A DNA stretch of 64,000 nucleotides from Escherichia coli (GCF_003334355.1 NZ_QOWP01000012.1), one strand, 5' to 3'. Shown: positions 48,823-59,327, counted from the stretch's first letter. Made by a program: numbers and translations. The notes: generated by a model not told the origin, from the sequence alone.

Positions 48823-50058
48823 ATGGAATTTACCACCGGATTGATGTCGCTCGACACCGCGCTTAATGAGATGCTTTCTCGCGTTACCCCATTGACCACC
48901 CAGGAAACGCTGCCACTGGTACAGTGTTTTGGTCGTATTCTGGCGAGCGATGTCGTTTCGCCGCTTGATGTTCCGGGGTTTGACAACTCCGCAATGGACG
49001 GCTACGCGGTGCGTTTAGCCGATATTGCCTCCGGGCAACCGCTGCCCGTTGCCGGTAAATCCTTTGCCGGTCAGCCATACCATGGTGAATGGCCTGCGGG
49101 CACCTGCATTCGTATTATGACCGGTGCGCCGGTGCCGGAAGGCTGCGAAGCGGTGGTGATGCAGGAGCAGACTGAACAAACGGACAATGGCGTGCGTTTT
49201 ACTGCTGAAGTGCGTAGCGGGCAAAATATTCGCCGTCGCGGTGAAGATATCTCTGCAGGTGCGGTTGTTTTCCCGGCGGGAACTCGCCTGACTACCGCTG
49301 AACTGCCAGTGATTGCTTCACTGGGGATTGCCGAAGTTCCGGTGATTCGTAAAGTGCGTGTAGCGCTTTTTTCTACCGGTGATGAACTCCAGTTGCCCGG
49401 TCAGCCACTGGGCGATGGCCAAATCTACGATACCAACCGTCTCGCCGTACACCTGATGTTAGAACAGCTGGGTTGCGAGGTAATCAACTTAGGGATTATC
49501 CGCGACGATCCCCATGCCCTGCGCGCCGCATTTATTGAAGCCGACAGCCAGGCGGATGTAGTGATCAGTTCCGGCGGTGTTTCAGTGGGTGAAGCGGATT
49601 ACACCAAAACGATTCTTGAAGAGCTGGGGGAGATCGCCTTCTGGAAGCTGGCGATTAAACCAGGTAAACCGTTCGCGTTCGGTAAACTCAGCAATAGCTG
49701 GTTCTGCGGCCTGCCGGGCAACCCGGTTTCAGCGACGCTGACCTTCTATCAACTGGTACAGCCTTTGCTGGCAAAACTAAGCGGCAACACCGCCAGCGGC
49801 CTGCCCGCGCGCCAGCGCGTACGCACAGCGTCCCGCCTGAAAAAAACGCCAGGACGTCTTGATTTCCAGCGCGGCGTGCTGCACCGCAACGCCGATGGCG
49901 AACTGGAAGTGACGACCACCGGACATCAGGGCTCACATATATTCAGCTCCTTTAGCCTCGGCAACTGCTTTATCGTACTGGAACGCGATCGCGGCAATGT
50001 GGAAGTGGGCGAATGGGTGGAAGTAGAACCGTTTAACGCGTTGTTCGGAGGCCTGTAA
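48823..50058 (+). CDS. moeA: Molybdopterin molybdenumtransferase
   Basis: 411 aa; [18 protein letters not shown]. Confidence 0.93.
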
Positions 50059-50807
50059 TGGCGGAACTCAGCGATCAGGAGATGCTGCGCTACAACCGGC
50101 AAATCATTCTGCGCGGTTTTGATTTTGACGGTCAGGAGGCGCTAAAAGATTCTCGTGTGCTGGTAGTCGGCCTCGGTGGACTCGGCTGCGCAGCTTCGCA
50201 GTATCTGGCAAGCGCCGGTGTCGGCAACCTGACGCTGCTCGACTTCGACTCGGTTTCGCTCTCGAATCTGCAACGCCAGACGCTGCACAGTGATGCCACG
50301 GTCGGGCAACCGAAGGTGGAATCCGCCCGTGACGCCCTGGCGCGGATCAATCCACATATCGCGATTACGCCAGTCAATGCACTGCTGGATGACGCAGAAC
50401 TTGCAGCATTGATTGCTGAACACGATCTGGTGCTCGACTGTACGGATAACGTTGCGGTACGTAATCAACTGAACGCAGGCTGTTTTGCCGCGAAGGTGCC
50501 GCTGGTTTCCGGCGCGGCAATTCGTATGGAAGGGCAAATCACGGTCTTCACTTATCAGGACGGCGAACCGTGCTATCGCTGCCTTAGCCGTTTGTTTGGC
50601 GAGAACGCATTAACCTGCGTAGAAGCAGGCGTGATGGCACCGTTGATCGGCGTAATTGGTTCGTTGCAGGCAATGGAAGCGATCAAACTGCTGGCAGGTT
50701 ATGGCAAACCGGCCAGCGGGAAAATCGTCATGTACGATGCGATGACCTGTCAGTTTCGCGAAATGAAACTGATGCGCAATCCGGGGTGTGAGGTGTGCGG
50801 GCAGTAA
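50058..50807 (+). CDS. moeB: Molybdopterin-synthase adenylyltransferase (ThiF/MoeB family)
   Basis: 249 aa; GLGGLGC nucleotide motif and CxxC pairs; start overlaps the moeA stop (TAATG). Confidence 0.93.
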   Translation: MAELSDQEMLRYNRQIILRGFDFDGQEALKDSRVLVVGLGGLGCAASQYLASAGVGNLTLLDFDSVSLSNLQRQTLHSDATVGQPKVESARDALARINPHIAITPVNALLDDAELAALIAEHDLVLDCTDNVAVRNQLNAGCFAAKVPLVSGAAIRMEGQITVFTYQDGEPCYRCLSRLFGENALTCVEAGVMAPLIGVIGSLQAMEAIKLLAGYGKPASGKIVMYDAMTCQFREMKLMRNPGCEVCGQ

Positions 50808-50817
50808 TTGCCACCTC

Positions 50818-50900
50818 CAGGCCTGATAAGACGCGACAAGCGTCGCATCAGGCATTTGCTCCAGACGCCAGATGCGGCGTGAACGCCTTATCTGGCCTAC
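50818..50900. repeat. REP/BIME cluster between convergent moeB and fsaA
   Basis: GCCTGATAAGACGCGACAAGCGTCGCATCAGGC and CAGATGCGGCGTGAACGCCTTATCTGGCCTAC. Confidence 0.85.
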
Positions 50901-50985
50901 GGTTCGGGCACAGATTTCCAAGCGCGGCAGGCATCGGTGCACTCCGCCACGTCATCAGCAATTTATGAGGATGCAGAACGTCCGG

Positions 50986-51648
50986 TTAAATCGACGTTCT
51001 GCCAAACGCTCCCTGCCAGTCCTGCTCAAACTTCGCCACAGCGGCTTCCACCGCCGGATAGCTAATCATCTGTTGTGCCACATCCAGTGGCAGAGTAATT
51101 GATTCACATCCTGCCAGTAAGCAGTCCAGCGCCTGACGCGGGGTTTTGAAACTCGCTGCCAGCACTTTCGCCTGCGGCGCATGCATTTTCAATAACTGGT
51201 GTAAGTCGGTCACAGTCTGAATGCCGCTACCGCCCTGAGCATCAATACGATTAACGTAAGGCGCAACATATTCCGCACCTGCCAGCGCCGACAGCAGCCC
51301 TTGTGCTGCGCCATATACCGCGGTTCCCAGCGTTGGAATCCCTTCCGCTTTTAACATCTTAATAGCTGCCAGCCCCTCGGCGGTCACCGGAACTTTCACC
51401 ACGATATCCGCAATAATAGAACGCAATTTACGTGCGTCATTCACCATCCCTTCAGCAGTGGTAGCCATTACCTGGGCAAACAGACGCCCCTGACCGCCCA
51501 TCGCTTCATGAAGTTGCGGAAGCACAACATCCAGCGGTTTTTTACCCGCGGCGATAATGCTTGGGTTAGTGGTCACACCCGCCAGCGGAAAAATACGTGA
51601 CAGCGCCTTCACCGCAACAACGTCTGAAGTATCCAGATACAGTTCCAT
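50986..51648 (-). CDS. fsaA: Fructose-6-phosphate aldolase 1
   Basis: 220 aa from the ATG ([30 protein letters not shown]); transaldolase-like fold. Confidence 0.92.
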
Positions 51649-51778
51649 AACCATCCTCAAAATGTACTTTTTGTCTGAATGTAGACTATCACGGGAAAAC
51701 TCTCTGAACAGTTGACGCACATCAATCTAACTTTCATTCGAAAGTATTTTAATGCTTGAACGAAATAGAGAGGCAACT

Positions 51779-52678
51779 ATGATTTTCAATATTCAGCGCT
51801 ACTCGACCCATGATGGCCCCGGTATCCGCACGGTCGTATTTCTTAAAGGCTGTTCGCTGGGCTGCCGCTGGTGTCAGAACCCGGAAAGCCGCGCCCGCAC
51901 GCAGGATCTGCTGTATGACGCACGACTGTGTCTGGAAGGCTGCGAGCTGTGCGCTAAGGCCGCGCCGGAAGTGATTGAGCGCGCGCTGAATGGTTTGCTT
52001 ATTCATCGGGAAAAGTTAACCCCGGAGCATCTGACGGCGTTAACCGACTGCTGTCCGACACAGGCATTAACCGTGTGTGGTGAAGTGAAAAGCGTTGAGG
52101 AGATCATGACGACCGTTCTGCGCGATAAACCGTTTTACGATCGCAGCGGCGGCGGTTTAACGCTTTCGGGTGGTGAGCCCTTTATGCAGCCGGAAATGGC
52201 GATGGCGCTACTGCAAGCCAGCCACGAGGCAGGCATTCATACTGCGGTAGAAACCTGTCTGCATGTGCCGTGGAAATATATCGCCCCTTCTCTGCCCTAT
52301 ATCGATCTGTTTCTTGCCGATTTAAAACACGTTGCCGACGCGCCGTTTAAACAGTGGACCGACGGTAACGCCGCCAGAGTGCTGGATAACCTGAAAAAAC
52401 TCGCCGCAGCGGGCAAAAAAATCATTATCCGCGTGCCGCTGATTCAGGGCTTTAATGCCGACGAAACCTCTGTAAAAGCCATTACCGATTTTGCCGCCGA
52501 CGAGCTGCACGTTGGCGAAATTCATTTTCTGCCCTACCACACGCTGGGCATCAACAAATATCACTTACTTAATCTGCCCTATGACGCCCCGGAAAAACCG
52601 CTTGATGCGCCAGAACTGCTCGACTTTGCCCAGCAGTATGCCTGCCAGAAAGGGTTAACCGCGACCTTACGAGGATAA
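51779..52678 (+). CDS. ybiY: Glycyl-radical-enzyme activating enzyme (radical SAM)
   Basis: 299 aa from the ATG at 51779; CxxxCxxC radical-SAM motif ([10 protein letters not shown]) and a ferredoxin-like Cys-rich insert. Confidence 0.9.
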
Positions 52679-52683
52679 CAACC

Positions 52684-55116
52684 ATGACCACACTGAAACT
52701 GGACACGCTCAGCGACCGCATTAAAGCGCACAAAAATGCGCTGGTGCATATTGTGAAACCGCCAGTCTGTACCGAGCGCGCGCAGCACTATACCGAGATG
52801 TATCAACAACATCTCGATAAGCCGATCCCGGTACGTCGCGCGCTGGCACTGGCGCATCACCTGGCGAATCGCACCATCTGGATCAAACACGATGAGTTGA
52901 TCATTGGCAACCAGGCAAGCGAAGTTCGCGCCGCGCCGATCTTCCCGGAATATACTGTCTCGTGGATCGAAAAAGAGATTGATGATCTGGCAGATCGTCC
53001 CGGTGCTGGCTTTGCGGTGAGCGAAGAGAACAAACGCGTTCTGCATGAAGTGTGCCCGTGGTGGCGCGGTCAGACCGTACAGGATCGCTGCTACGGCATG
53101 TTTACCGATGAGCAAAAAGGTCTGCTGGCGACCGGAATCATTAAAGCGGAAGGCAATATGACCTCCGGCGATGCGCACCTGGCGGTGAATTTCCCGCTGC
53201 TGCTGGAAAAAGGGCTTGATGGTCTGCGCGAGAAAGTAGCGGAACGTCGCTCGCGCATCAACCTGACGGTGCTGGAAGATTTACACGGTGAGCAATTCCT
53301 GAAAGCGATTGATATCGTGCTGGTGGCAGTCAGTGAACACATTGAACGTTTCGCTGCCCTGGCGCGTGAAATGGCCGCGACCGAAACCCGCGAAAGCCGT
53401 CGCGATGAACTGCTGGCGATGGCAGAAAACTGCGATCTTATCGCCCACCAGCCGCCGCAGACTTTCTGGCAGGCGCTGCAACTGTGTTACTTCATCCAGT
53501 TGATTTTGCAGATCGAATCTAACGGTCACTCAGTATCGTTTGGTCGTATGGACCAGTATCTCTACCCGTACTATCGCCGCGACGTTGAACTCAACCAGAC
53601 GCTGGATCGCGAACACGCCATCGAGATGCTGCATAGCTGCTGGCTGAAACTGCTGGAAGTGAACAAGATCCGCTCCGGCTCACACTCAAAAGCCTCTGCG
53701 GGAAGTCCGCTGTATCAGAACGTCACTATTGGCGGGCAAAATCTGGTTGATGGTCAACCAATGGACGCGGTGAATCCACTCTCTTACGCGATCCTCGAAT
53801 CCTGCGGTCGCCTGCGTTCCACTCAGCCTAACCTCAGCGTGCGTTACCATGCAGGAATGAGCAACGATTTCCTCGACGCCTGCGTACAGGTGATCCGTTG
53901 CGGCTTCGGGATGCCGGCGTTCAACAACGACGAAATCGTGATCCCGGAATTTATTAAACTCGGTATTGAACCGCAGGACGCTTATGACTACGCAGCGATT
54001 GGTTGTATAGAAACCGCCGTCGGTGGCAAATGGGGCTATCGCTGTACCGGCATGAGCTTTATCAACTTCGCCCGCGTGATGCTGGCGGCGCTGGAAGGCG
54101 GGCATGATGCCACCAGCGGCAAAGTGTTCCTGCCACAAGAAAAAGCGTTGTCGGCAGGTAACTTCAACAACTTCGATGAAGTGATGGACGCGTGGGATAC
54201 GCAAATCCGTTACTACACCCGCAAATCAATCGAAATCGAATATGTCGTCGACACCATGCTGGAAGAGAACGTGCACGATATTCTCTGCTCGGCGCTGGTG
54301 GATGACTGTATTGAGCGAGCGAAAAGTATCAAGCAAGGCGGCGCGAAATATGACTGGGTTTCTGGCCTGCAGGTCGGCATTGCCAACCTCGGCAACAGCC
54401 TGGCGGCAGTGAAGAAACTGGTGTTTGAACAAGGTGCGATTGGTCAGCAACAGCTTGCTGCCGCACTGGCAGATGACTTCGACGGCCTGACTCACGAGCA
54501 GCTGCGTCAGCGGCTGATTAACGGTGCGCCGAAGTACGGCAACGACGATGATACTGTCGATACGCTGCTGGCTCGCGCTTATCAGACCTATATCGACGAA
54601 CTGAAACAGTACCATAATCCGCGCTACGGTCGTGGTCCGGTTGGCGGCAACTATTACGCGGGTACGTCATCAATCTCCGCTAACGTACCGTTTGGCGCGC
54701 AGACTATGGCAACACCGGACGGGCGTAAAGCCCACACCCCGCTGGCAGAAGGCGCAAGCCCGGCCTCCGGTACTGACCATCTTGGCCCTACTGCGGTCAT
54801 TGGCTCAGTGGGTAAACTGCCTACGGCAGCGATTCTCGGCGGCGTGTTGCTCAACCAGAAACTGAATCCGGCAACGCTGGAGAACGAATCTGACAAGCAG
54901 AAACTGATGATCCTGCTGCGTACCTTCTTTGAAGTGCATAAAGGCTGGCATATTCAGTACAACATCGTTTCCCGCGAAACGCTGCTGGATGCGAAAAAAC
55001 ATCCCGATCAGTATCGCGATCTGGTAGTGCGTGTCGCGGGCTATTCCGCGTTCTTCACCGCGCTCTCTCCAGACGCTCAGGACGATATCATCGCCCGTAC
55101 TGAACATATGCTGTAA
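52684..55116 (+). CDS. ybiW: Pyruvate-formate-lyase-like glycyl radical enzyme, substrate unassigned
   Basis: 810 aa; C-terminal glycyl-radical signature VVRVAGYSAFF; starts 6 nt after ybiY. Confidence 0.9.
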   Translation: MTTLKLDTLSDRIKAHKNALVHIVKPPVCTERAQHYTEMYQQHLDKPIPVRRALALAHHLANRTIWIKHDELIIGNQASEVRAAPIFPEYTVSWIEKEIDDLADRPGAGFAVSEENKRVLHEVCPWWRGQTVQDRCYGMFTDEQKGLLATGIIKAEGNMTSGDAHLAVNFPLLLEKGLDGLREKVAERRSRINLTVLEDLHGEQFLKAIDIVLVAVSEHIERFAALAREMAATETRESRRDELLAMAENCDLIAHQPPQTFWQALQLCYFIQLILQIESNGHSVSFGRMDQYLYPYYRRDVELNQTLDREHAIEMLHSCWLKLLEVNKIRSGSHSKASAGSPLYQNVTIGGQNLVDGQPMDAVNPLSYAILESCGRLRSTQPNLSVRYHAGMSNDFLDACVQVIRCGFGMPAFNNDEIVIPEFIKLGIEPQDAYDYAAIGCIETAVGGKWGYRCTGMSFINFARVMLAALEGGHDATSGKVFLPQEKALSAGNFNNFDEVMDAWDTQIRYYTRKSIEIEYVVDTMLEENVHDILCSALVDDCIERAKSIKQGGAKYDWVSGLQVGIANLGNSLAAVKKLVFEQGAIGQQQLAAALADDFDGLTHEQLRQRLINGAPKYGNDDDTVDTLLARAYQTYIDELKQYHNPRYGRGPVGGNYYAGTSSISANVPFGAQTMATPDGRKAHTPLAEGASPASGTDHLGPTAVIGSVGKLPTAAILGGVLLNQKLNPATLENESDKQKLMILLRTFFEVHKGWHIQYNIVSRETLLDAKKHPDQYRDLVVRVAGYSAFFTALSPDAQDDIIARTEHML

Positions 55117-55261
55117 TCTCCTCGGCCCGGCGGCGTCGTCGCCGGGCTAAATCATTCACATCATCAATTTCATCCTTACTTTCATTCGAAATATAATTTG
55201 TGCTCTGCGTCACATTGTTATTACACTGTTACGGTTTCATTTTCGAGCCAGGAGCACACCT

Positions 55262-56077
55262 ATGAGCGTAAAAGTTATCGTCACAGACATGGACGGTACT
55301 TTTCTTAACGACGCCAAAACGTACAACCAACCACGTTTTATGGCGCAATATCAGGAACTGAAAAAGCGCGGCATTAAGTTCGTTGTTGCCAGCGGTAATC
55401 AGTATTACCAGCTTATTTCATTCTTTCCTGAGCTAAAGGATGAGATCTCTTTTGTCGCGGAAAACGGCGCACTGGTTTACGAACATGGCAAGCAGTTGTT
55501 CCACGGCGAACTAACCCGACATGAATCGCGGATTGTTATTGGCGAGTTGCTAAAAGATAAGCAACTCAATTTTGTCGCCTGCGGTCTGCAAAGTGCATAT
55601 GTCAGCGAAAATGCCCCCGAAGCATTTGTCGCACTGATGGCAAAACACTACCATCGCCTGAAACCTGTAAAAGATTATCAGGAGATTGACGACGTACTGT
55701 TCAAGTTTTCGCTCAACCTGCCGGATGAACAAATCCCGTTAGTGATCGACAAACTGCACGTAGCGCTCGATGGCATTATGAAACCCGTTACCAGTGGTTT
55801 TGGCTTTATCGACCTGATTATTCCCGGTCTACATAAAGCAAACGGTATTTCGCGGTTACTGAAACGCTGGGATCTGTCACCGCAAAATGTGGTAGCGATT
55901 GGCGACAGCGGTAACGATGCGGAGATGCTGAAAATGGCGCGTTATTCCTTTGCGATGGGCAATGCTGCGGAAAACATTAAACAAATCGCCCGTTACGCTA
56001 CCGATGATAATAATCATGAAGGCGCGCTGAATGTGATTCAGGCGGTGCTGGATAACACATCCCCTTTTAACAGCTGA
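55262..56077 (+). CDS. ybiV: HAD-superfamily Cof-like sugar phosphatase
   Basis: 271 aa; [14 protein letters not shown]; strongly similar to ybjI at 29056. Confidence 0.9.
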
Positions 56078-56228
56078 CCTCTCTACCGGAGCCGTGCGCT
56101 CCGGTTTTCCCTTCTTTTTACATCCTGTACATCACATCAAATCATTAAACTTGCATTAACTTATTTATAACTTATATTGTCACATGCAAATCAGAATGGT
56201 TTCGAATGAAAGTTAATGAGAGGTGGTT

Positions 56229-57494
56229 ATGGCTTCTACTTTTACCAGCGACACATTGCCTGCCGATCACAAAGCAGCTATCCGTCAGATGAAGCACGCG
56301 CTGCGGGCGCAGCTTGGCGACGTCCAGCAGATCTTTAATCAGCTAAGCGATGACATTGCCACGCGAGTGGCTGAAATCAACGCACTCAAAGCACAGGGCG
56401 ATGCCGTCTGGCCGGTGCTGTCTTATGCCGATATCAAAGCAGGTCATGTTACTGCAGAGCAGCGCGAACAGATTAAACGTCGCGGTTGTGCGGTGATAAA
56501 AGGCCATTTCCCCCGCGAACAAGCGCTAGGCTGGGATCAGTCGATGCTGGACTATCTGGACCGCAACCGCTTTGACGAGGTCTACAAAGGCCCCGGCGAT
56601 AATTTCTTCGGGACGCTCAGCGCTTCACGTCCCGAGATTTACCCCATCTACTGGTCGCAGGCGCAAATGCAGGCCCGCCAGAGTGAAGAAATGGCGAATG
56701 CGCAGTCGTTTCTCAATCGTCTGTGGACATTTGAAAGTGATGGAAAGCAATGGTTTAACCCGGATGTGAGCGTCATCTACCCTGACCGTATCCGCCGCCG
56801 TCCGCCCGGAACGACCTCCAAAGGTCTTGGAGCGCATACCGACTCCGGGGCACTGGAACGCTGGCTGCTTCCAGCGTATCAGCGCGTTTTCGCCAACGTC
56901 TTTAATGGCAATCTGGCGCAATATGATCCCTGGCATGCGGCACATCGTACGGAAGTTGAAGAGTACACGGTGGACAACACCACCAAATGTTCCGTGTTTC
57001 GGACATTCCAGGGCTGGACAGCGCTCTCTGATATGCTGCCTGGTCAGGGGCTGCTGCACGTCGTGCCCATTCCTGAAGCTATGGCGTACGTACTGTTACG
57101 TCCGCTGCTTGATGATGTGCCGGAGGATGAACTGTGCGGCGTAGCGCCCGGAAGAGTATTGCCGGTATCAGAGCAATGGCATCCACTGTTGATTGAGGCG
57201 TTAACCAGCATTCCAAAACTCGAAGCCGGAGACTCCGTCTGGTGGCACTGCGACGTCATCCATTCCGTTGCCCCCGTTGAAAATCAACAAGGTTGGGGCA
57301 ACGTGATGTACATTCCTGCGGCACCGATGTGCGAGAAAAATCTTGCCTACGCGCACAAGGTGAAGGCCGCACTGGAAAAAGGCGCATCGCCGGGCGACTT
57401 CCCGCGCGAGGACTATGAAACAAACTGGGAAGGACGCTTTACGCTTGCCGACCTCAACATTCACGGTAAGCGAGCGTTGGGCATGGATGTTTGA
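56229..57494 (+). CDS. ybiU: Uncharacterised DUF1479-family protein
   Basis: 421 aa from the ATG at 56229 (longest ORF begins at a GTG at 56223). Confidence 0.85.
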   Translation: MASTFTSDTLPADHKAAIRQMKHALRAQLGDVQQIFNQLSDDIATRVAEINALKAQGDAVWPVLSYADIKAGHVTAEQREQIKRRGCAVIKGHFPREQALGWDQSMLDYLDRNRFDEVYKGPGDNFFGTLSASRPEIYPIYWSQAQMQARQSEEMANAQSFLNRLWTFESDGKQWFNPDVSVIYPDRIRRRPPGTTSKGLGAHTDSGALERWLLPAYQRVFANVFNGNLAQYDPWHAAHRTEVEEYTVDNTTKCSVFRTFQGWTALSDMLPGQGLLHVVPIPEAMAYVLLRPLLDDVPEDELCGVAPGRVLPVSEQWHPLLIEALTSIPKLEAGDSVWWHCDVIHSVAPVENQQGWGNVMYIPAAPMCEKNLAYAHKVKAALEKGASPGDFPREDYETNWEGRFTLADLNIHGKRALGMDV

Positions 57495-57572
57495 GAATTA
57501 ATGGAAGTGAATTGATGTGGGATTAAGAAAATCGATTCGACGTTACTCAGATTGCTGACAAATGCGCTTTGT

Positions 57573-57676
57573 TAATGCCTGATGCGGCGTTAACGCCTTA
57601 TCCGGCCTACAAAGTCCTGCAGATTCAATATATTGCAGGTACTGCGTAGGCCTGATAAGCGTAGCGCATCAGGCTA
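57573..57676. repeat. REP/BIME cluster between ybiU and ybiT
   Basis: GCCTGATGCGGCGTTAACGCCTTATCCGGCCTAC and GTAGGCCTGATAAGCGTAGCGCATCAGGC, with an internal CCTGCA...TGCAGG hairpin. Confidence 0.85.
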
Positions 57677-57734
57677 TTTTGCATTTGTCATCAGCCGCCG
57701 TCACCCCGACAGTATCGGGGTGACGGATAATCAC

Positions 57735-59327
57735 TTACTCGATCCCTTTACTACGCAGGTAATCTTCGTAATTACCGCTAAAGTCGATCACGCGTTCCGG
57801 GGTGATTTCCAGAATGCGGGTCGCCAGGGAGCTTACGAACTCACGGTCGTGTGAAACAAAGATCAGCGTGCCCTGATACAGTTCCAGTGCCATGTTCAGC
57901 GACTCAATGGATTCCATATCCAGGTGGTTGGTCGGTTCGTCCATGATCAGAATGTTCGGCTTCTGCATCATTAACTTACCAAACAGCATCCGCCCTTTTT
58001 CCCCACCGGAAAGCACTTTAGCTGGCTTTTTGATGTCGTCCTGGCTGAACAGCAAACGACCGAGAATACTGCGTACCGCCTGCTCGTCATCGCCTTCCTG
58101 CTTCCACTGGCTCATCCATTCGAACACGGTCAGATCATTTTCAAACTCATATTCGTGGTCCTGAGCATAGTAACCAATGCGCGCGTTCTCAGACCATTTT
58201 ACGGTGCCGCTGTCCGGTTGCAGATCGCCCACCAGCGTTTTCAGCAGCGTTGATTTACCGACGCCGTTGGTACCCAGTACCGCCAGTTTTTCACCCACTT
58301 CCAGCAGCAGGTTGAGATTTTTAAACAGCGGACCGTTATCAAACCCTTTGGTCAGACCTTCCACTTCCAGCGCGTTACGGAACAGTTTCTTATCCTGTTC
58401 AAAACGGATGAACGGGTTCTGACGGCTGGAGGCTTTCACCTCTTCCAGTTTGATTTTATCAATCTGGCGCGCGCGCGAAGTTGCCTGGCGAGATTTCGAG
58501 GCGTTGGCGCTAAAGCGGCTAACGAAAGATTGCAACTCAGCAATCTGCGCTTTCTTCTTGGCGTTATCGGCCAGCAGACGTTCACGCGCCTGGGTCGCCG
58601 CCGTCATGTACTCATCGTAGTTACCCGGATAAACGCGCAGCTCGCCGTAATCCAGATCCGCCATGTGGGTACAGACCATGTTAAGGAAGTGACGGTCGTG
58701 CGAGATGATGATCATGGTGCTGTCACGCTCGTTCAGCACCTGTTCCAGCCAGCGAATGGTGTCGATGTCGAGGTTGTTGGTCGGTTCGTCGAGCAGGAGA
58801 ATATCCGGATCAGCAAACAGCGCCTGCGCCAGAAGCACACGCAGCTTCCAGCCAGGAGCAACTTCACTCATCGGGCCGTAGTGCTGTTCCACTGGAATTC
58901 CCACGCCAAGCAACAGTTCACCGGCGCGAGCTTCCGCAGAGTAACCGTCCATTTCGCCGTATTTAACTTCCAGATCGGCCACTTTATAGCCGTCTTCTTC
59001 ACTCATTTCCGGCAAAGCATAGATGCGGTCGCGCTCCTGCTTCACTTCCCACAACTCTTTATGCCCCATGATCACCGTATCCAGCACAGTGAACTCTTCA
59101 AAGGCAAACTGATCCTGACGCAGTTTACCAATGCGCTCGTTGGGATCGAGGGAAACGTTACCCAGCGTCGGCTCAAGGTCGCCGCCGAGGATCTTCATAA
59201 AGGTGGATTTACCACTACCGTTCGCGCCAATCAGGCCGTAACGGTTGCCGCCGCCAAATTTGACGGAAATGTTTTCAAACAACGGCTTACTGCCGAACTG
59301 CATGGTGACGTTACTGGAAACTAACAC
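57735..59327 (-). CDS. ybiT: ABC-F family ATPase (two ATP-binding cassettes, no transmembrane domain)
   Basis: 530 aa; two Walker A motifs ([18 protein letters not shown]) and two LSGGE signatures. Confidence 0.9.

Follow-up and report, generated by a model that had tools for sequence, protein, structure and literature searches.

What does the glycyl-radical enzyme YbiW act on, and do the sugar-phosphate genes on either side of it serve the same pathway? These are the questions raised by positions 50986-57494 of the window, the whole 64,000-nucleotide stretch of Escherichia coli DNA that was analysed. This segment holds five genes, fsaA on the minus strand followed by ybiY, ybiW, ybiV and ybiU on the plus strand (Table 1). 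An earlier note on this DNA had described them as a cryptic system at a known locus, not a new insertion, and all the genes and motifs that it named were present where it had placed them. Positions 50000-58500 matched E. coli PSS-12 at 100% identity, and of 5426 complete E. coli genomes 5384 carry at least 80% of this stretch. The K-12 pair YbiY/YbiW (b0824/b0823) occupies the same locus, with the same gene order and with all three intergenic regions identical to those of the window; among the proteins, the only changes were E184K in YbiW and L73R and D201E in FsaA, and YbiY was unchanged. There is no difference of substance between the two YbiY/YbiW pairs, and the locus is a core E. coli system that is already known and is no insertion.

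Table 1. Features of the fsaA-ybiYW-ybiV-ybiU region, with positions counted from the first nucleotide of the window.
Feature	Position	Strand	Description or basis
fsaA, fructose-6-phosphate aldolase, 220 aa	50986-51648	-	NF009296, Lys85; divergent from ybiY
FNR-like box TTGACGCACATCAA	51712-51725	+	9/10 matches to TTGAT-N4-ATCAA
Operator O1 ACTTTCATTCGAAA, candidate YciT site	51730-51743	+	36-49 nt upstream of ybiY ATG
Putative -10 hexamer TTTAAT of ybiYW promoter	51748-51753	+	conserved block TAATTTAAT
ybiY, radical-SAM activase of YbiW, 299 aa	51779-52678	+	TIGR02494, motifs
ybiW, glycyl-radical enzyme, 810 aa	52684-55116	+	TIGR01774, motifs, PDB match
GC-rich hairpin GCCCGGCG-loop-CGCCGGGC, no T-run	55126-55148	+	sequence reading
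Operator O2 ACTTTCATTCGAAA, candidate	55178-55191	+	71-84 nt upstream of ybiV ATG
CRP-like box TGTGCTCTGCGTCACA	55199-55214	+	1 mismatch; beside O2
ybiV, Cof-type HAD-IIB sugar phosphatase, 271 aa	55262-56077	+	TIGR00099, DxD
Intrinsic-terminator-like hairpin + T-run	56085-56105	+	terminator scan; directly 3' of ybiV
Operator O3 ACTTTCATTCGAAA, candidate	56200-56213	-	16-29 nt upstream of ybiU ATG
ybiU, Gig2-like/DUF1479 protein, 421 aa	56229-57494	+	Pfam PF07350 (formerly DUF1479, now Gig2-like)

The ybiY stop codon ends at 52678 and the ybiW ATG begins at 52684, with 5 nt between them, and the two genes were adjacent in all 80 loci compared. A GC-rich hairpin directly behind the ybiW stop codon (55126-55148), which the terminator scan did not report, may mark the end of the ybiYW transcript. 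YbiY carries a CX3CX2C motif near its N-terminus (C25-S-L-G-C29-R-W-C32) and a Cys-rich insert that looks ferredoxin-like (C51, C55, C58, C91, C92, C100), and it scored 370.2 bits against the NCBIfam model of glycyl-radical enzyme activases, TIGR02494 (cut-off 174.35). In YbiW, the glycyl-radical loop RVAGYSA spans residues 783-789, with Gly786, and additionally matches the GrcA-type glycyl radical domain; the score against TIGR01774 (NCBIfam, PFL2/glycerol-dehydratase-type enzymes) was 1410.9 bits (cut-off 678.2). These motifs and scores bear out the enzyme and activase pair as it had been read before. YbiW also matched over its full length, with 4 substitutions, the crystallised E. coli YbiW (8id7, 8yjn); a third structure, 8yjo, is PflD. 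The molecule names in the PDB go no further than 'probable dehydratase'. YbiW/YbiY share their glycyl-radical fold and activation chemistry with PflB/PflA, but PflA is without the ferredoxin-like insert, and TIGR02493 matches residues 101-278 of YbiY only.

The substrate of YbiW, which the earlier note held to be not firmly assigned, has been reported. According to a 2025 review (PMC12441222), Ma et al. (J Am Chem Soc 146:26187, 2024) described the conversion of 1,5-anhydroglucitol-6-phosphate to 1-deoxyfructose-6-phosphate by YbiW, and the conversions carried out by YbiW and PflD are reported to permit anaerobic growth on 1,5-anhydroglucitol. That statement is therefore outdated, whereas the suggestion that the genes serve anaerobic sugar-phosphate metabolism proved right, the reported substrate being a sugar phosphate and not a compound unrelated to sugars. 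By this published assignment, YbiW would be a 1,5-anhydroglucitol-6-phosphate C-O lyase. The view that the substrate is still unassigned, with the sugar-phosphate neighbours as a mere hint, could appeal to the generic RefSeq product names ('glycyl radical protein', 'putative pyruvate formate lyase'), to NCBIfam, which holds the subfamily model TIGR01774 and no equivalog model for YbiW, and to a 2026 preprint that still gives ybiYW 'no functional annotation'. We consider this view very improbable, given that the biochemical, structural and growth-based assignment of 2024 is cited by independent reviews and that PDB entries exist for both YbiW and PflD. The pair YbiW/YbiY has thus ceased to be an orphan, while the RefSeq names and NCBIfam lag behind.

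Older annotations would instead make YbiW an isoenzyme of pyruvate formate-lyase (PFL) or ketoacid formate-lyase, as in the K-12 record, and a close homologue (PDB 6xs4) is labelled formate C-acetyltransferase. It is hardly conceivable that this is correct, because the YbiW score of 165 bits falls far short of the cut-off of the PFL equivalog TIGR01255 (994), and because PflB structures were matched weakly (E 3e-44). The active site of PFL is an adjacent Cys-Cys pair. In the comparison of active sites proposed in the earlier note, YbiW had no such pair, but a single Cys with a Glu two residues on (G-C441-I-E443), and these residues align with C433 and E435 of the B12-independent glycerol dehydratase (GDH) of Clostridium butyricum (1r8w), a member of the same subfamily TIGR01774 with about 40% identity. 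Both enzymes carry RVAGYSA, Cys-x-Glu, an ESNGHS segment and, in YbiW, a His aligned to GDH His164; they differ in the pocket near GDH Asp447, which reads W-H-D-S in GDH and Y-R-C-T-G-M in YbiW. Other 1,2-eliminating glycyl-radical enzymes grouped with YbiW are propanediol dehydratase, choline TMA-lyase and hydroxyproline dehydratase. Whereas GDH-type enzymes remove water or an amine, YbiW is reported to act on a cyclic sugar phosphate, the ring ether of which is opened.

Taken as a whole, the region is very probably a regulon for the anaerobic catabolism of 1,5-anhydroglucitol under the control of the unlinked DeoR-type repressor YciT. Published work has 1,5-anhydroglucitol-6-phosphate supplied by a phosphotransferase system; no phosphotransferase gene was found near ybiYW in any locus examined. 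By analogy with characterised glycyl-radical activases, YbiY would use S-adenosylmethionine to turn Gly786 of YbiW into the glycyl radical, and YbiW, following the published assignment, would cleave a C-O bond of the pyranose by radical chemistry, which opens the ring and yields 1-deoxyfructose-6-phosphate. FsaA scored 453 bits against NF009296 (FSA; cut-off 306) and 282 bits against TIGR00875 (cut-off 246), its mechanical open reading frame reaching upstream to a GTG at 51720. It has Lys85, known from the FSA structure as the Schiff-base lysine. About 62 of the 80 loci have the gene beside ybiY, among them nearly all of those outside the moeB-ybiT context. Ma et al. are said to have shown that FsaA cleaves 1-deoxyfructose-6-phosphate to glyceraldehyde-3-phosphate and hydroxyacetone, and that GldA reduces the hydroxyacetone to 1,2-propanediol. 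Such a cleavage is consistent with the known acceptance of hydroxyacetone by FsaA, an enzyme whose in vivo role had earlier been called enigmatic (PMC7767278).

PflD, of the PflD/PflC pair, is a paralogous eliminase-type glycyl-radical enzyme of YbiW (E 1.7e-145; PDB 8yjo). The pflD and pflC genes sit among frw phosphotransferase genes, unlike ybiYW, which have no phosphotransferase gene beside them. PMC12441222 gives 1,5-anhydromannitol-6-phosphate, the C2 epimer of the YbiW substrate, as the substrate of PflD, and the same product, 1-deoxyfructose-6-phosphate.

Deletion of yciT was reported to increase expression of ybiY, ybiU, ybiW, ybiV and fsaA by 7.7, 7.0, 3.5, 2.2 and 1.8 log2 units, respectively (PMC8464067 supplement), and ChIP-exo gave peaks of YciT at ybiY and ybiV (PMC8464067). 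The genes fsaA, ybiV and ybiU are thus de-repressed together with ybiYW, as the earlier interpretation required; the term 'cryptic' applies to them only as tight repression under laboratory conditions and not otherwise. YciT was also pulled down on ybiY promoter DNA, where the footprint of RNA polymerase and the YciT site overlap (bioRxiv 10.1101/2025.05.13.653802). The deletion and promoter-occupancy data come from K-12, with its identical intergenic DNA. YciT motifs reported in the literature are palindromic. The 14-mer ACTTTCATTCGAAA, an inverted repeat CTTTC-N4-GAAAG, occurs in three exact copies in the 64-kb window, all upstream of ybiY, ybiV and ybiU, and in none of the shuffled sequences. 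Over 80 Enterobacterales loci, 185 of the 188 matches stood upstream of one of these genes; the 14-mer was present before ybiY in 78 of 80 loci, and a match was found before ybiV in 52 of 55 and before ybiU in 52 of 53, the relocated ybiU of Mangrovibacter included. The consensus across loci is itself palindromic. Between the 14-mers and the coordinates of the ChIP-exo peaks there is a distance of about 100-165 bp, and a similar offset of about 100 bp was seen by the Reg-Seq authors (bioRxiv 10.1101/2025.05.13.653802). In the mechanism that we propose, YciT would bind one copy of the repeat before each of the three genes, the ybiY operator would also serve the divergent fsaA, and a sugar phosphate of the pathway would be the inducer that releases YciT.

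Profile scores of YciT placed its own model first, followed by AgaR, GlpR and SrlR, which are sugar-phosphate repressors. Like these and DeoR, YciT is a member of the DeoR family that represses catabolic genes, with a short palindromic candidate operator repeated at several promoters; those repressors are found with their operons, whereas in E. coli about 480 kb separate yciT from its targets. In 14 species, however, a YciT orthologue (57-81% identity) adjoins fsaA-ybiYW or ybiU. In six of these species the gene has the flanks of yciT in K-12, with rnb on one side and yciH, pyrF, lapB, lapA and pgpB on the other, and the linkage is kept in Serratia, Buttiauxella and other genera.

The ybiYW promoter was reported to be active only under anaerobic conditions and to carry an activator footprint that directly precedes the YciT site, a footprint for which the Reg-Seq motif scan gave no candidate activator (bioRxiv 10.1101/2025.05.13.653802). 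The centre of the FNR-like box of Table 1 lies 41.5 nt before a putative start near 51760, and in 62 of the 80 species a box with at most one mismatch precedes ybiY; the count of FNR-like patterns in the whole window was not above chance. Block TAATTTAAT, with the putative -10 hexamer, was conserved in an alignment of 80 upstream regions, and its spacing from the box would fit a class II promoter. FNR at TTGAC-N4-ATCAA (-41.5) would activate ybiYW anaerobically, with the operator between box and -10. Upstream of ybiV, the CRP-like box was conserved in 41 of 55 loci, the count of CRP-like patterns in the whole window again being not above chance. From the position and conservation of the two boxes, we infer a putative link of the ybiYW promoter to FNR and of the ybiV promoter to CRP.

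It might be argued that ybiV and ybiU are unrelated genes that lie downstream of ybiYW by chance. Each has its own promoter region, with a terminator-like hairpin between them. Moreover, about 25 of 80 loci, roughly a third, have fsaA-ybiYW without ybiV and ybiU, and ybiU is missing from E. albertii and E. whittamii. Nevertheless, we judge a chance arrangement improbable, since the common 14-mer precedes both genes in nearly all loci that have them, both are de-repressed by yciT deletion, ybiU by 7 log2 units (PMC8464067), and ybiU adjoins a yciT orthologue in Rouxiella and Mangrovibacter, the moved gene of Mangrovibacter having kept its candidate operator. Both are true members of the YciT regulon with candidate operators of their own; their absence from about a third of the fsaA-ybiYW loci implies that the core pathway can do without them. 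YbiV has the DxD motif D9-M-D11 (residues 9-11) and scored 221 bits against TIGR00099 (Cof; cut-off 137). Its most likely role would be the dephosphorylation of surplus 1,5-anhydroglucitol-6-phosphate.

YbiU is predicted to adopt a double-stranded beta-helix fold of the kind seen in PhyH-type Fe(II)/2-oxoglutarate oxygenases, and H203-T-D205 together with H340/H345, candidate residues of the H-x-D/E...H metal-binding triad, was at least 90% conserved in 40 sequences with identities down to 27%. It shares just 11-16% identity with the sugar-acting PhyH-type oxygenases (the orthoester synthases EvdO1, EvdO2, AviO1 and HygX, and KanJ), from which it differs by a long N-terminal helical extension and by its separate Gig2-like family PF07350. 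A predicted fold of an oxygen-requiring kind is placed inside the regulon of an oxygen-sensitive enzyme. YbiU could be the oxygen-dependent arm of the YciT regulon, a predicted Fe(II)/2-oxoglutarate oxygenase whose substrate would be 1,5-anhydroglucitol-6-phosphate or an anhydro- or deoxy-sugar phosphate closely related to it, a reading that we put forward tentatively and hold to be rather unlikely; one possible reaction would be hydroxylation at C1, beside the ring oxygen, giving glucose-6-phosphate directly. The ybiU promoter, which has the candidate operator and no FNR-like box, fits such an arm, as does the linkage to yciT that ybiU keeps in Rouxiella and Mangrovibacter. Among distant Gig2-like genes, members of sugar-transport and sugar-catabolic clusters were found. 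In the yciT-deletion RNA-seq, from cultures described as agitated, ybiU was the top-expressed de-repressed gene (baseMean 6488, compared with 23 for ybiY; PMC8464067). Our search of the literature found no biochemical report of 2-oxoglutarate/O2-dependent YbiU turnover.

What is new here is the 14-mer at three promoters, the FNR-like box, the yciT linkage and the predicted oxygenase-type fold of YbiU. 1,5-Anhydroglucitol is a dietary sugar analogue and a clinical glycaemic marker, and the neutropenia seen in G6PC3 deficiency and in GSD-Ib has its 6-phosphate as the toxic metabolite (PMC12441222); because of this toxicity, gut bacterial routes that consume 1,5-anhydroglucitol are of medical interest. 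A probiotic approach would need an aerobic enzyme that metabolises 1,5-anhydroglucitol (PMC12441222). Further points of interest are the possible correspondence of YbiV to the human phosphatase that acts on 1,5-anhydroglucitol-6-phosphate, the metabolite to which YciT responds, and the possible identity of FNR with the activator behind the Reg-Seq footprint. The main question left at the locus is the function of YbiU, an oxygen-requiring predicted fold beside an oxygen-sensitive radical enzyme. If the oxygenase reading were true, a single repressor would govern both an aerobic enzyme of E. coli, YbiU, and an anaerobic one, YbiW, for one substrate, and YbiV would be the phosphatase that serves as a relief valve.

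All elements that the earlier note had described at this locus, a radical-SAM activase and a glycyl-radical enzyme flanked by fsaA, ybiV and ybiU, were borne out by the ORF list and by RefSeq gene calls for an E. coli of identical sequence (gene coordinates in the table). YbiY contains C25-x3-C29-x2-C32 and six more cysteines within the ferredoxin-like insert, and YbiW contains RVAGYSA (Gly786) together with G-C441-I-E443. Curated NCBIfam cut-offs were cleared by all four annotatable proteins, and YbiU belongs to Pfam PF07350 (Gig2-like, formerly DUF1479). Mechanically called ORFs were too long for both divergent genes (51720-51752), that of fsaA reaching a GTG at 51720 (244 aa vs. 220 annotated). 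A 308-aa form of ybiY from an old annotation (ATG at 51752) was dropped for the 299-aa form, as this ATG lies within a conserved -10-like block. Since the long ORFs of fsaA and ybiY run into this block and a conserved operator, the shorter annotated forms are supported. Among 5426 complete genomes of E. coli, 5384 contain the 8.5-kb stretch over 80% or more of its length. Compared to K-12, the only protein differences are YbiW E184K and FsaA L73R/D201E, and all three intergenic regions are identical, so that experiments performed in K-12 are directly applicable here. REP-derived elements flank the locus on both sides, with a wider REP-like stretch at about 57560-57720, and account for the many hits obtained with the 8.5-kb query (median of 20 per E. 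coli genome).

Features of the ybiYW locus and its flanks (window coordinates)
Feature	Coordinates	Strand	Size or score	Remark
naRNA4 (Rfam)	50820-50897	-	79.6 bits	between moeB and fsaA
fsaA	50986-51648	-	220 aa	
14-mer copy O1	51730-51743	+		intergenic, just upstream of ybiY
ybiY	51779-52678	+	299 aa	
ybiW	52684-55116	+	810 aa	
14-mer copy O2	55178-55191	+		intergenic, just upstream of ybiV
CRP-like box	55199-55214			adjoins ybiV operator; kept in 41 of 55 loci
ybiV	55262-56077	+	271 aa	
14-mer copy O3	56200-56213	-		intergenic, 16-29 nt before ybiU ATG
ybiU	56229-57494	+	421 aa	
ES036 (Rfam)	57611-57653	+	41.6 bits	between ybiU and ybiT

The view that the substrate of YbiW is not firmly assigned turned out to be outdated, as cleavage of 1,5-anhydroglucitol-6-phosphate is reported in those passages of a review that cite Ma et al. 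2024 (PMC12441222). According to these passages, 1,5-anhydroglucitol and 1,5-anhydromannitol are phosphorylated by a phosphotransferase system, YbiW cleaves 1,5-anhydroglucitol-6-phosphate and PflD 1,5-anhydromannitol-6-phosphate, both yielding 1-deoxyfructose-6-phosphate, and growth on 1,5-anhydroglucitol then becomes possible for E. coli and many gut bacteria under strict anaerobiosis (PMC12441222). PDB structures are available for YbiW (8id7, 8yjn), PflD (8yjo) and a close homologue (6xs4). The crystallised YbiW differs from the protein of the window by E114A, E115A and K117A, which look like surface-entropy-reduction mutations, and at residue 184 has Glu, as in K-12, where the window protein has Lys. 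1-Deoxyfructose-6-phosphate is reportedly split by FsaA or FsaB into glyceraldehyde-3-phosphate and hydroxyacetone, the latter being reportedly reduced to 1,2-propanediol by GldA. Such an aldolase reaction is consistent with the use of hydroxyacetone by FsaA, which has been known for long, and also with the physiological role of FsaA, earlier termed 'enigmatic' (PMC7767278). An identity of YbiW as pyruvate formate-lyase was rejected, as its score of 165 bits is far below the 994 required by the PFL equivalog model; the alignment of C433/E435 of the B12-independent glycerol dehydratase with the Cys-x-Glu motif of YbiW also counts against it. YbiV is a Cof-type sugar phosphatase, and the most economical guess, by analogy to human G6PC3, is that it may relieve a build-up of 1,5-anhydroglucitol-6-phosphate. 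No conserved phosphotransferase system or other transporter was found beside ybiYW in 20 non-syntenic loci.

Co-regulation of fsaA, ybiV and ybiU with ybiYW, on which the sugar-related reading of the locus partly hung, is documented by published data on the DeoR-type repressor YciT, for which Gao et al. 2021 (PMC8464067) obtained ChIP-exo peaks at ybiY/fsaA and at ybiV, and de-repression in a yciT deletion with log2 changes of +7.7 (ybiY), +7.0 (ybiU), +3.5 (ybiW), +2.2 (ybiV) and +1.8 (fsaA). In a Reg-Seq preprint (bioRxiv 10.1101/2025.05.13.653802), the ybiYW promoter was active in anaerobic growth only, YciT was recovered on its DNA by mass spectrometry with a site over the RNA polymerase footprint, and an activator footprint was seen slightly further upstream, for which the authors' own motif scan gave no candidate.

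The exact 14-mer ACTTTCATTCGAAA is present in three copies in the 64-kb window (O1, O2 and O3) and in none of the shuffled sequences; O3, before ybiU, is preceded by a conserved AT-rich block that resembles a promoter. When 1.57 Mb from 80 loci of different Enterobacterales species (YbiW 85-99% identical) were scanned with up to two mismatches, 185 of the 188 matches preceded ybiY (78 of 80 loci), ybiV (52 of 55) or ybiU (52 of 53) by no more than 150 nt. The consensus, aaCTTTCATTCGAAAGt, is an inverted repeat, CTTTC-N4-GAAAG, which agrees with the YciT motif, stated in the literature to be palindromic, and we propose the 14-mer as a candidate YciT operator. Once the offset from NC_000913.2 to.3 is applied, the peaks that Gao et al. 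obtained by ChIP-exo (858455-858488 and 862873-862900) lie about 100-165 bp from the 14-mers, within the coding regions of ybiV (3' end) and fsaA (5' end); a similar disagreement of about 100 bp was noted by the Reg-Seq authors (bioRxiv 10.1101/2025.05.13.653802). In profile scores YciT matched its own model first and then AgaR, GlpR and SrlR best, a kinship that points to a sugar phosphate of the pathway as its likely inducer.

Upstream of ybiY, the sequence TTGACGCACATCAA (51712-51725), 18 bp upstream of the O1 centre, has 9 of the 10 bases of the FNR consensus, and such a box, with no more than one mismatch allowed, precedes ybiY in 62 of the 80 species; the operator is followed by a -10-like block, TAATTTAAT. 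If TTTAAT (51748-51753) served as the -10 element, transcription would start near 51760, which would place the FNR box at -41.5, a class II position, and the operator between this box and the -10. Such a geometry would explain the activity restricted to anaerobiosis, the repression by YciT and the upstream activator footprint, and we predict that the FNR-like box is the anaerobic activator site of ybiYW. Over the whole window, FNR and CRP consensus counts were not above chance, so that this box and the CRP-like one owe their credibility to conservation and position only. As to promoters, a generic scan for sigma-70 sites and terminators gave no useful signal (5 found vs. 5.9 expected).

Adjacency of ybiY and ybiW was observed in all 80 loci, and fsaA was divergent from them in about 62, including nearly all those outside the moeB-ybiT context, which identifies fsaA-ybiYW as the portable core; ybiV-ybiU come next in the Escherichia, Citrobacter, Enterobacter, Klebsiella and Kosakonia type of context. 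In about 12 species, ybiYW, ybiV and ybiU occupy the moeB-ybiT interval and fsaA is absent from the locus; these include L012 (Salmonella enterica subsp. diarizonae, in which ybiV is inverted), L025, L031, L032, L034 and L038 (Klebsiella/Raoultella). If the pathway works there, the aldolase would be encoded elsewhere, e.g. by an fsaB-like gene. A YciT orthologue (57-81% identical) directly adjoins fsaA-ybiYW or ybiU in 14 species, from genera such as Serratia, Buttiauxella, Atlantibacter, Brenneria, Pantoea, Rouxiella and Mangrovibacter, and in six of these loci the flanks, rnb and, at the opposite end, yciH-pyrF-lapB-lapA-pgpB, are those of yciT in K-12. In K-12 itself (L083, 1339000-1348000), yciT stands alone among rnb, pdeR, yciZ, osmB, yciH, pyrF and lapAB, and in E. 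coli about 480 kb separate it from its targets. Comparison with L071, L072, L074, L077, L078 and L080 showed that, in Serratia, Buttiauxella and 'Enterobacter pulveris', yciT has fsaA-ybiY-ybiW as its immediate neighbours in the interval from rnb to yciH-pyrF-lapB. These shared flanks suggest that yciT and its targets probably once formed a single locus, which was separated in the Escherichia lineage.

Literature searches retrieved no functional study of YbiU or DUF1479, and a 2012 gap-filling proposal that YbiU makes dTMP was dismissed because its basis was a BLAST E-value of 1.6. A first AlphaFold model on a shallow 14-sequence alignment was discarded (pLDDT 54); that built on 40 sequences, from a search of 1.84 billion representatives, was confident (pLDDT 92). 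Across the family, conservation reaches 90% or more at H203-x-D205 and at H340/H345. A profile search of the PDB returned DUF1479 structures only, and the relationship to oxygenases is visible at fold level only. By far the most abundant de-repressed transcript in the yciT deletion was ybiU (baseMean 6488 vs. 23 for ybiY), in cultures described as grown with agitation (PMC8464067), and its promoter has the operator without an FNR-like box. Distant Gig2-like genes are found in sugar ABC-transporter, dehydrogenase, dihydroxyacetone-kinase and Entner-Doudoroff-type clusters. That YbiU might handle the same or a related anhydro-sugar phosphate under oxygen is a speculative and rather improbable reading.

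Two metagenome contigs (L087:4458-16223 and L086:194-5079) carry Gig2-like/DUF1479 genes about 40% identical to YbiU. One cluster comprises an ABC sugar transporter, an epimerase-type dehydrogenase, a Dak1/Dak2 dihydroxyacetone kinase, a gluconolactonase-like protein, an ILVD/EDD dehydratase and a KDPG-type aldolase, and the other an ABC transporter and two short-chain dehydrogenases; neither cluster contains a glycyl-radical enzyme. Within Escherichia, ybiU is unusually variable (L003:13546-14799, L006:12417-13670, L004:13388-14468, L005:6633-6840). In one E. coli strain and Escherichia sp. E1V33, YbiU is 82-84% identical at the protein level vs. 94-99% for its neighbours, and two mismatches are seen in the ybiU operator. 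Instead of ybiU, nothing but REP-like sequence is present in E. albertii, and an AT-rich insert of about 1.1 kb with small unrelated ORFs in E. whittamii.

Collectively, what the earlier note had observed stands and its interpretation is supported in part. The system was already known from its enzymology (2024), its control by YciT (2021) and its anaerobic promoter (2025-26), and the additions made here are modest refinements: a triplicated conserved operator, candidate FNR and CRP boxes, an ancestral linkage of yciT to its targets, and a predicted oxygenase fold of YbiU. Only one feature is not truly accounted for by the known system, namely that a protein with a fold predicted to require oxygen shares a regulon with an oxygen-sensitive radical enzyme. 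The overall interest is low to moderate, and only the question of YbiU could surprise a specialist.
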